From IMG/VR virus record IMGVR_UViG_2734482777_000019: a DNA stretch of 40,224 nt; one strand, 5' to 3'. Shown piece by piece: positions 5,328 to 35,072 of the stretch (the first letter of the stretch is position 1; every line of letters starts with the position of its first letter). The DNA is from a virus (Duplodnaviria; Heunggongvirae; Uroviricota; Caudoviricetes). The notes under the pieces are model-generated. The model worked only from the letters and a program-made list of their open reading frames with translations. It did not search any database and was not told the origin of the DNA. The translations under genes were made by a program, and so were the position numbers.

Positions 5328-6206
5328 TCAGTAGTTATGTACTGAAGGAGGCAATTCTTTATTCTTAAGTCTCATCCATGCGGAAAGATTCGTTGGTCCG
5401 TCTGGCTCATTAATATCAACATCTCGTGTGTGGTTTATTAAAACGTCTCTCGCCATTCCGATAACATACGAGAATTCATGACCGTAGTCGTAGCATCTGC
5501 CGGAATAGTTCGATTGAATTTGTTTTAGCGCCGGATACAGTTCGCGGAATAATGCCTGTGAGCGGTTGGCATAATCCCATAACCATACAAAGCTGTTTGC
5601 TTCTTTTGCAGAAAGCTCGTTGGTTTTCTTCTCTTGTTTGCCAATGAACTCACCTTCAAGCACTACCCTGTGGATGTACTCTACGGCCAGCGGGATTTGT
5701 TCAATTGAAAGTTCATCAATGCTGTCAATACCAAAACGCTGATGAACCATATTGTATGCATCGTCATAGCGAAGTCCTTTCTTTCCTACCAGCATGTTTA
5801 CTGCATCGCGTAGCGGTGTTCTTTCCTCAACAGTGGTTTTCTTTCCTTTTACATACTCGCCATGTTTGCGAATTGAAGGCAGAACTTCTGCTGTTACCCA
5901 CTTGCGGAATTTGTGCGGGACTGAACCTTTATTGACTGCATCGCGGCAGCGCAGAACCAATGTATACATACCTGATTCGCTCACAATGCTTAGATTCTGC
6001 TCACCACCAAGGGTGTAACTTAAAGTTACTCCCTTTTCATCGTCATCAAGTGCAGTAAGCGCCTTGCGTGAGTTAGTCAAATCTAAAGCATCACAAACAT
6101 CTTTAGCTACAAACCACGGCTCACCGCACTTGTTGATGACGCGGATTTCACTGTCGCCGAATTTGAAGATGGTGAAATCGTTTTGTGCCTTTGCTATACT
6201 TTTCAT
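5328..6206 (-). CDS. ant: Antirepressor (Bro-N domain family) of the immI region
   Basis: 292-aa ORF with Bro-N-like N-terminus ([16 protein letters not shown]); located directly downstream of arc as in P22 immI. Confidence 0.8.
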
Positions 6207-32405: not shown

Positions 32406-32422
32406 TTAGTACATGCAATCAT

Positions 32423-32486
32423 TATCACCGCTAGAGGTAAAATAGTCAACACGCACGGTGTTAGATATTTATCCCTTGCGGTGATA
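32423..32486. promoter_or_regulatory. Right operator OR1-OR2-OR3 with divergent PR/PRM promoters (lambda type)
   Basis: OR1 tatcaccgctagaggta (32423-32439), OR2 caacacgcacggtgtta (32447-32463), OR3 tatcccttgcggtgata (32470-32486). Confidence 0.9.
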
Positions 32487-32493
32487 GATTTAA

Positions 32494-33210
<717 letters not shown>

Positions 33211-33241
33211 TTCAACGCAGCAAAAAAGGGTAATTCAATTA

Positions 33242-34114
33242 ATGGAACATGATGATTTACAGCAATTACCATCCCCATTCGCAAAATGGAAGGGGAAGAT
33301 CGACTTAGGTGGTGAAAGTATTGATTGCTATGTGCTTGACACTGGACATCGTGTTATAGCTTTGCGAGCAACTGTAAAAGCAATTGCCAATGCGGAGTCA
33401 GGAGACCTGGCTAAATTTATTGGCGTTAGCTCACTTAATGGCTTTATAGACAAAGACTTAGTCCTGGCCGAACTCATAGAGTTTTCCATACCAGGAACCC
33501 AATTTAAAAGCCAAGGACTTAAGACTGAGCAATTTGAATTGATTTGTCGCGGCTATGTACAGGCGCTATACAAAGGCGCGCCATTGACAGATAGACAGCG
33601 AGAAATAGCAATTAAATGTGCTGTATTAACAGCAGGTTTAACCAGGACTGGGTTAGATGCTCTAATTGATGAGGCTACTGGGTATCAGTATGAGCGCGCA
33701 GAGGATGCTCTCCAAGTAAAACTCAGGGCGTTCATCGCTGAGGAACTAAGAGCATGGGAAAAAACATTTCCTGATGAGTTATGGGAAGAATTTGGTAGAT
33801 TGACAGGATGGAGTACCCCATTGCAATCAAGGCCCAAATGGTGGGGGAAATTAGTTATAGAGTTAATTTATGACACTCTTGACGAAGATGTGGCTAAATA
33901 TCTTAAAGAAAACAAGCCTGCGGCAGGAGTTCACTGGCATAGACAGTTAACCGAGAACCTAGGTGTAAGGCAGCTTGTATCAAGGTGCTGGGAGGTTATT
34001 GGGGTCGCAAAAACATGCGACACCATGCATGAGCTAAGAAGTCGAGTTGCTCAACACTATGGAAAGAAACCTGTTCAAATGACAATGTATTTACCGGAAA
34101 AAGAAATTAAATAA
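33242..34114 (+). CDS. Hypothetical protein in the rexAB-equivalent position downstream of cI (candidate lysogen-expressed exclusion/defence gene)
   Basis: 290-aa product from Met 31 nt after the cI stop; no resemblance to RexA/RexB; AT-rich relative to cI; followed by an intrinsic terminator before OL/PL. Confidence 0.65.
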   Translation: MEHDDLQQLPSPFAKWKGKIDLGGESIDCYVLDTGHRVIALRATVKAIANAESGDLAKFIGVSSLNGFIDKDLVLAELIEFSIPGTQFKSQGLKTEQFELICRGYVQALYKGAPLTDRQREIAIKCAVLTAGLTRTGLDALIDEATGYQYERAEDALQVKLRAFIAEELRAWEKTFPDELWEEFGRLTGWSTPLQSRPKWWGKLVIELIYDTLDEDVAKYLKENKPAAGVHWHRQLTENLGVRQLVSRCWEVIGVAKTCDTMHELRSRVAQHYGKKPVQMTMYLPEKEIK

Positions 34115-34121
34115 TATACAA

Positions 34122-34147
34122 CCCGGCCTCAGCGCCGGGTTTTCTTT
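34122..34147 (+). terminator. Intrinsic terminator closing the cI operon (timm-equivalent)
   Basis: cccggc-ctcagc-gccggg hairpin followed by TTTTCTTT. Confidence 0.65.
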
Positions 34148-34302
34148 GCCTCACGATCGCCCCACCTAAAAACACATAACCAATTGTATTTATTTTAAAA
34201 TTAATAGATACAACTCACTAAACATCGCAATTCAGTTCTCTCGATCACCTTCCCAATCCACACAACCCTGCAAAAAATAAATCTATATAAAAAACATACA
34301 GA

Positions 34303-34366
34303 TAACCATCTGCGGTGATAAATTATCTCTGGCGGTGTTGACACGCATACCACTAGCGGTGATACT
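34303..34366. promoter_or_regulatory. Left operator OL1-OL3 and promoter PL (lambda type)
   Basis: tatctctggcggtgTTGACA...taccactagcggtGATACTaaacacatcagcaggacgc matches lambda PL/OL. Confidence 0.88.
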
Positions 34367-34766: not shown

Positions 34767-35072
34767 ATGACAGTAGTCATTACATATCTGGCTGACGATA
34801 ACGCCAGAAATCGCCGCAGAGCACGCAGACAGGCTCAACGTGAACAGGCAATGCAAGAACAGCGACTGGCGCGAAAGATTGCGCTAAAGCTCTCTGGTTG
34901 CGTCAGAGCAGACAAAGCAGCATCACTCGGAAGCCTTCGCTGCAAGAAGGTAGTAGAAGTCGAGCGTAAACAGAACCGTATTTACTACCGGAAGCCACGG
35001 AGTGAAATGGGTGTGACTTGCTCAGGCCGCCAGAAGCAACGCGGAAAATCAATTCCAGCTTATTACGATTGA
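34767..35072 (+). CDS. N: Antiterminator N (phage 21-like body with divergent N-terminal arginine-rich motif)
   Basis: 101 aa; N-terminal ARM DNARNRRRARRQAQREQ; central and C-terminal segments (ARKIALKLSGCVRADKAASLGSLRCKK...KQNRIYYRKPRSEMGVTCSGRQKQRGKSIP) resemble phage 21 N and the lambda N C-terminus. Confidence 0.88.
   Translation: MTVVITYLADDNARNRRRARRQAQREQAMQEQRLARKIALKLSGCVRADKAASLGSLRCKKVVEVERKQNRIYYRKPRSEMGVTCSGRQKQRGKSIPAYYD

Follow-up and report, generated by a model that had tools for sequence, protein, structure and literature searches.

The interval between cI and the left operators

The window, which is the whole 40,224-nt stretch of DNA analysed here, carries a P22-like prophage with a lambda-immunity region. 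The OR region is near-identical to lambda OR in alignment and contains a PR promoter on the minus strand (32421-32449; -35 TTGACT, 17-nt spacer, -10 GATAAT, by promoter scan), and we take PRM to lie there as well, reading rightward into cI, on the basis of lambda knowledge and a Degnan-type annotation of the same sequence. The cI gene (32497-33210, plus strand) is of the lambda immunity type and encodes a 237-aa repressor with Pfam HTH_3 and Peptidase_S24 matches, 98.3% identical to lambda cI and 99.2% identical to HK97/mEp234 cI. It is followed on the same strand by an interval (33211-33241) in which the scan found neither a promoter nor a terminator, by a 290-aa open reading frame with an ATG start (33242-34114), hereafter the P63C gene after its protein family, and by an intrinsic terminator (34120-34150; AACCCGGCC-TCAGC-GCCGGGTT plus TTTCTTT) that alignment, scanning and folding identify as lambda t_imm. 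The t_imm hairpin has a stem of 8 pairs (34120-34141) followed by a T-run (ΔG of -14.6 kcal/mol, z = -2.6). Beyond it, alignment with lambda and the sequence itself place OL3 (34304-34320), OL2 (34324-34340) and OL1 (34348-34364) on the plus strand within a span of 34304-34366, together with PL (plus strand; -35 at 34338, -10 ending at 34366), which the promoter scan also detects. The PL-side limit of the immunity region is the gene for an N-type antiterminator (34767-35072, plus strand) that is not of the lambda type; it matches PHROG 271 (E = 5e-36) and, weakly, Pfam N_peptide, and presumably the N of this prophage is phage-21-like.

The start of the P63C gene can be placed at several codons. 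The open reading frame list begins at an ATG inside cI (33146) and PGAP at a TTG that overlaps the cI stop (33203); the ATG at 33242 was taken as the start because this is where homologues begin, with MExxE. The Salmonella phage SI8 has an in-frame TAA four codons 5′ of the equivalent start. An internal terminator-like site at 33396-33412 lacked a proper U-tract in the scan. The nin region of the window holds no second P63C copy, and a bona fide Ant is encoded separately in the window at 5328-6206.

Homology to lambda runs at about 97-98% from cII through cro, OR and cI to the cI stop, where the alignment is lost, and is regained exactly at the t_imm hairpin, from which it continues through OL3, OL2, OL1 and PL to about 34385. 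These two breaks therefore identify 33211-34119 as a replacement of lambda rexA-rexB. The first-pass annotation had correctly put a 290-aa open reading frame into the lambda rexAB slot, between the cI stop at 33210 and t_imm, and an intrinsic terminator just upstream of OL/PL, its end point of 34147 taking in that terminator. Its view that the frame does not resemble Rex is borne out by the searches: the best BLASTP match has an E of 1.8, and the family HMM finds neither RexA nor RexB at E ≤ 10. Its description of cI, OR, cro, cII and OL/PL as lambda-identical goes slightly too far, as cI has four amino acid changes, Cro has one, and OL1 has a G>A change at 34355. Likewise, the gene that it called AT-rich is only mildly so, with a GC content of 42.7% (GC3 35.5%) as compared to 45.7% (GC3 43.5%) for cI and 46.8% for the window.

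Together with its own intrinsic terminator, the P63C gene is best read as a single-gene accessory cassette, or moron. Morons bring a terminator and in many cases also a promoter; the P63C gene has the terminator, which is conserved across genera. The presence/absence pattern with sharp junctions by which morons are recognised was found here, with the cI stop and t_imm as the two ends. Among 1209 E. coli genomes with a lambda-type cI, nine carry the P63C gene; across complete E. coli genomes, the same gene occurs in 11 of 5426, and it is also present in Salmonella P22-like phages.

The P63C family and its domain architecture

The gene had been reported as unrecognised, a statement that does not hold. 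Its product matches Pfam P63C (PF10546) over residues 161-245 (79.8 bits, E = 2.3e-22; gathering score 26.1) and PHROG 2384, a group of unknown function, over residues 6-287 (E = 1.3e-86); RefSeq names it "P63C domain-containing protein". The profile search that had been proposed as a check returned this family instead, and no structural or housekeeping protein was matched with confidence. There are 2702 homologues, and 1987 clusters at 50% identity reach E ≤ 1e-3. Full-length representatives align to query residues ~11-285, covering both halves, down to about 30% identity, and a Pfam scan found P63C in all 89 of the aligned homologues. The protein had no match in NCBIfam or, at E ≤ 1, among the PADLOC models, and PDB sequence searches, whether started from the protein alone or from the family profile, gave no relative of use. 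A literature search found no experimental study of P63C function, the Paracoccus phage paper being non-functional. Overall, the P63C family is known and catalogued without an assigned function, and membership gives no mechanism.

Amino acid identity remains at 75-90% between the alpha, beta and gamma classes of proteobacteria, with copies in Pseudomonas, Delftia, Aureimonas, Caulobacterales and others. Comparison with copies from other genera gives a pN of 0.07-0.17 and a pS of 0.78-0.92, with synonymous sites saturated; to judge by this substitution pattern, the P63C gene is intact and under strong purifying selection. A pseudogene or a chance open reading frame is ruled out by this selection and by the thousands of homologues. 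The Erwinia copy is only 62% identical, as compared to about 80% for the Pseudomonas and Alphaproteobacteria copies, and the gene's GC content is far lower than that of its high-GC hosts.

The 290-aa protein has a pI of about 6 and, with a maximum Kyte-Doolittle 19-residue mean of 1.13, neither a predicted transmembrane segment nor a predicted signal peptide, and its sequence characterises it as soluble. The full-length model has moderate confidence (pLDDT 75, pTM 0.51). In it, an N-terminal alpha/beta domain (aa 9-112; 33266-33577, plus strand) adopts a winged-helix-like, DNA-binding-type fold, whose beta-beta-beta-alpha-alpha...beta-beta-alpha topology is similar to that of the Bro-N/KilA-N/APSES and Ski/Sno/Dachshund (DHD) domains with modest structural scores, and its BFVD matches are mostly Bro-N, KilA or antirepressor proteins. 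At the sequence level there is no corresponding profile match: none of the 89 homologues matches Pfam Bro-N, KilA-N or ANT, and pRha likewise gave no profile match. The motif G137-x2-A-L-x-D-E-A-T-G-Y-Q-x2-R152 (33650-33697, plus strand) follows where a long helix ends and is a candidate functional site; this motif, which contains DEATGYQ..R, is invariant in 89 sequences with identities of 27-100%. The P63C domain in its Pfam bounds (aa 161-245; 33722-33976, plus strand) is helical in the secondary structure of the model. Foldseek matched p63 of Myxococcus phage Mx8, the namesake of P63C, along the whole length (E = 7e-4), and the two proteins are colinear. Searches of Pfam and NCBIfam showed no nuclease, integrase or transposase signature. 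Further, the family has optional N-terminal modules, namely an IEPIDxS..VV leader, a GGxARA..ExR motif and a YdaS/Cro-type HTH, and some homologues are fused to HTH heads of the Cro/YdaS/CI type. An N-terminal DNA-binding module with a variable C-terminal module is reportedly typical of phage antirepressors (Ant, Roi, Rha) and their kin, and the P63C protein has a similar layout.

Repressor linkage and the systems that share the slot

In phages of hosts as different as E. coli and Streptococcus pyogenes, P63C genes are found directly 3′ of repressors of at least 15 unrelated types (clustering at 50% identity gave 15 groups), on the repressor's strand and 24-260 nt downstream of it. The gene is repressor-adjacent in about 26 of 51 IMG/VR loci, and the repressor is not adjacent in about half of the loci. 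Named examples of the linkage are Salmonella phage SI8, Erwinia phage Midgardsormr38, a P. chlororaphis prophage and S. pyogenes Javan515, where the order is repressor, P63C, int; in Gordonia phage Petra the gene lies within the lysogeny module, and in Paracoccus phage Pkon1 it adjoins an arc/mnt/KilA-N immI-like cluster. A 100%-identical P63C protein sits behind a 933W-type cI, and repressors that precede identical P63C proteins share only 24% identity with each other. In contrast to the present repressor-linked clade, a distant subfamily (933W L0095; 28% identity across 89% of the length) is located in the delayed-early, lytic nin region of Stx phages, 933W among them, where it adjoins roi and is flanked by a DNA methyltransferase on one side and roi/NinG on the other. 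Replication-module type showed no pattern with P63C carriage, O/P, O/DnaB and primase-helicase modules all being found among the carriers.

The ends of the cassette recur outside the lambda immunity region. By alignment and a pattern search, the last ~28 nt of cI (CCAGTGGCCTGAAGAGACGTTTGGATGA; 33183-33210, plus strand) persist as non-coding DNA between a foreign repressor and the P63C gene in L015 and L066 (933W-type repressor) and, in diverged form, in two Salmonella loci (L002/L018). The cI 3′ end thus travels with the cassette behind foreign repressors and so marks its left recombination boundary. On the other side, Salmonella, Erwinia, Pseudomonas and many IMG/VR loci have a t_imm-type hairpin after the stop codon of the P63C gene.

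Among exclusion systems expressed in lysogens, Rex is the classical one, and 933W Stk is another defence gene of the cI-to-OL interval. Like lambda rexA-rexB, the P63C gene shares the strand of cI and is placed between that gene and t_imm, presumably within the same PRM/PRE transcript and with the same terminator; unlike RexAB, which comprises two genes including that of the polytopic membrane protein RexB, it is a single open reading frame without a membrane component. SieA/SieB-type membrane exclusion proteins differ in the same respect, as they have transmembrane segments and the P63C protein has none. The slot is known as a defence locus of variable content (RexAB, BstA, HigBAC and HicAB), in agreement with the first-pass annotation, which had described it as classically encoding exclusion or abortive-infection functions.

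The closest likeness is to BstA, the abortive-infection protein of prophage BTP1 (PADLOC PDLC02356, C-terminal PF26567), which shares the slot directly downstream of a prophage repressor. In the lambda-immunity phage CL707, BstA fills the same slot as the P63C gene (CL70704; PADLOC E = 1.3e-105, serving as the positive control). Both are single genes for proteins of about 300 aa with their own terminators, both products are soluble two-domain proteins with an N-terminal alpha/beta domain of a DNA-binding type, which in the P63C protein is predicted from the model, and the three optional N-terminal modules described above for P63C occur in the BstA family as well. However, the P63C protein does not match the BstA HMM, the C-terminal halves are unrelated (hhalign probability 0.1%), and conservation across classes is 75-90% identity for P63C versus 36-50% for BstA. 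Full alignments of the two families gave an hhalign probability of 38-70%, and controls (shuffled, reversed or unrelated) did not exceed 0.6%; with the add-ons trimmed, the cores gave 1.9% (E = 0.026), a similarity that is not significant. The signal came from the N-terminal add-ons in some members of both families, and the P63C gene was accordingly not assigned to BstA. BstA is paired with a DNA element, aba (anti-BstA), that provides self-immunity; a search of 33150-34200 for an aba-like element or repeat returned only short chance-type matches and no internal structured element.

Proposed function and its alternatives

The P63C protein is a good candidate for a new anti-phage protein. In particular, it may be a lysogen-expressed exclusion or abortive-infection factor analogous to BstA, a reading that we consider to have about an even chance of being correct. 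Expression in lysogens is expected because of the repressor-strand position 24-260 nt behind 15 unrelated repressor types, and there is no sigma-70-like promoter between cI and the P63C gene, hence its apparent reliance on PRM read-through. By analogy with rexAB in lambda, the gene would be transcribed with cI from PRM in the lysogen and its transcription stopped at t_imm. Fold and context suggest that the product would be a soluble cytoplasmic protein, whose winged-helix-like N-terminal domain (of the Bro-N/KilA-N/Dachshund type) would bind nucleic acid, while the DEATGYQ..R helix and the P63C module would serve as its effector or interaction part. Superinfecting phages would be the target, and the action would be analogous to that of BstA, which acts at replicating phage DNA; in this, the protein would be unlike the membrane-type exclusion proteins RexB or SieB. 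Several observations count against this reading: strong conservation across classes is unusual for arms-race genes, among proteins of the Bro-N/KilA-N type regulators and antirepressors are commoner than defence proteins, no PADLOC model was matched at E ≤ 1, the trimmed core is not significantly similar to that of BstA, and the full-length model has only moderate confidence. Moreover, the 933W/Stx subfamily lies in the lytic nin region, and the P63C fold therefore also serves functions outside lysogeny.

A different function within the lysogen, which we regard as fairly unlikely, is that of a lysis-lysogeny switch or transcription regulator: a DNA-binding, antirepressor-like or repressor-accessory protein, co-expressed with cI and acting on its own switch, on other prophages' repressors or on host genes, without exclusion. 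The likeness of its N-terminal fold to Bro-N, KilA-N, antirepressor-type and eukaryotic DNA-binding domains, the Cro/YdaS/CI-type HTH heads of some homologues and the position of the Pkon1 gene beside an immI-like cluster all speak for such a regulator, as does lambda RexA, which binds DNA and influences the switch. Tight repressor linkage suits a functional partnership as well as mere co-expression; however, the same P63C protein, even at 100% identity, occurs behind repressors only 24% identical to each other, which makes a specific repressor partnership unlikely, and the frequent loci without an adjacent repressor and the missing Pfam matches to Bro-N, KilA-N or ANT also weigh against a regulator.

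The nin location of the Stx-phage subfamily, between DNA methyltransferase and roi/NinG, and a conservation strong enough to fit contact with conserved host replication or repair machinery would instead suit an accessory of lytic-growth DNA metabolism (replication, recombination or anti-host), its cI-linked position being incidental, at a permissive site with recombination-prone boundaries. We hold this to be quite improbable. In the close clade the gene shares the repressor's strand, lies to the repressor side of OL/PL and is insulated by a terminator; a lytic promoter therefore reaches the P63C gene only by antisense or convergent transcription. The same arrangement in Javan515 and in the lysogeny module of Petra also argues against a lytic role, and the rare presence/absence polymorphism among genomes with a lambda-type cI implies that the gene is dispensable for phage growth. 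There is a slim chance that the gene is a selfish mobile gene, an addiction module or a non-phage lysogenic-conversion factor, kept by its spread or by a change in host physiology. Its patchy distribution, the incongruent phylogeny seen in the Erwinia copy, its low GC content in high-GC hosts and the boundary sequences carried along with it are consistent with such an element, but it has no conserved neighbouring partner gene that could be an antitoxin, it lacks nuclease, integrase or transposase signatures, and neither of the features that would fit a surface or virulence factor, a signal peptide or a transmembrane segment, is predicted.

Returning to the exclusion factor, a broader and more tentative proposal is that the repressor-linked P63C clade could be a large, unnamed, single-protein prophage immunity family that is functionally interchangeable with BstA; we rate this as possible rather than probable. 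The two families would share the same slot, the same optional N-terminal adaptors and a DNA-sensing N-terminal domain, and P63C would contribute a distinct and extremely conserved effector (the DEATGYQ..R helix and P63C) directed against a target that does not vary among proteobacterial phages or hosts, which might be an intermediate of replication or a core enzyme of the host.

The cI-to-OL interval is among the best-validated places for prophage defence genes (RexAB, BstA and HigBAC), and the P63C family comprises roughly 2000 clusters at 50% identity from phages of Gram-negative and Gram-positive bacteria. If the proteins of this P63C clade are defence factors, a widespread single-gene system would be added and a recurrent "hypothetical protein" beside repressors would be explained. 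The unusual conservation of the clade would then suggest a target that is hard for phages to alter, with relevance for host range in phage therapy. The swapping of N-terminal adaptor modules between BstA and P63C offers a handle on the regulation or localisation of both families. Further, the cI relic and the common t_imm hairpin provide a concrete case of cassette exchange between immunity regions. The same slot is occupied by hicAB in mEp234, and in sampled E. coli genomes the other occupants that end at the same terminator are NYN, DUF1828, DUF2335, DUF3037 or RexB genes.

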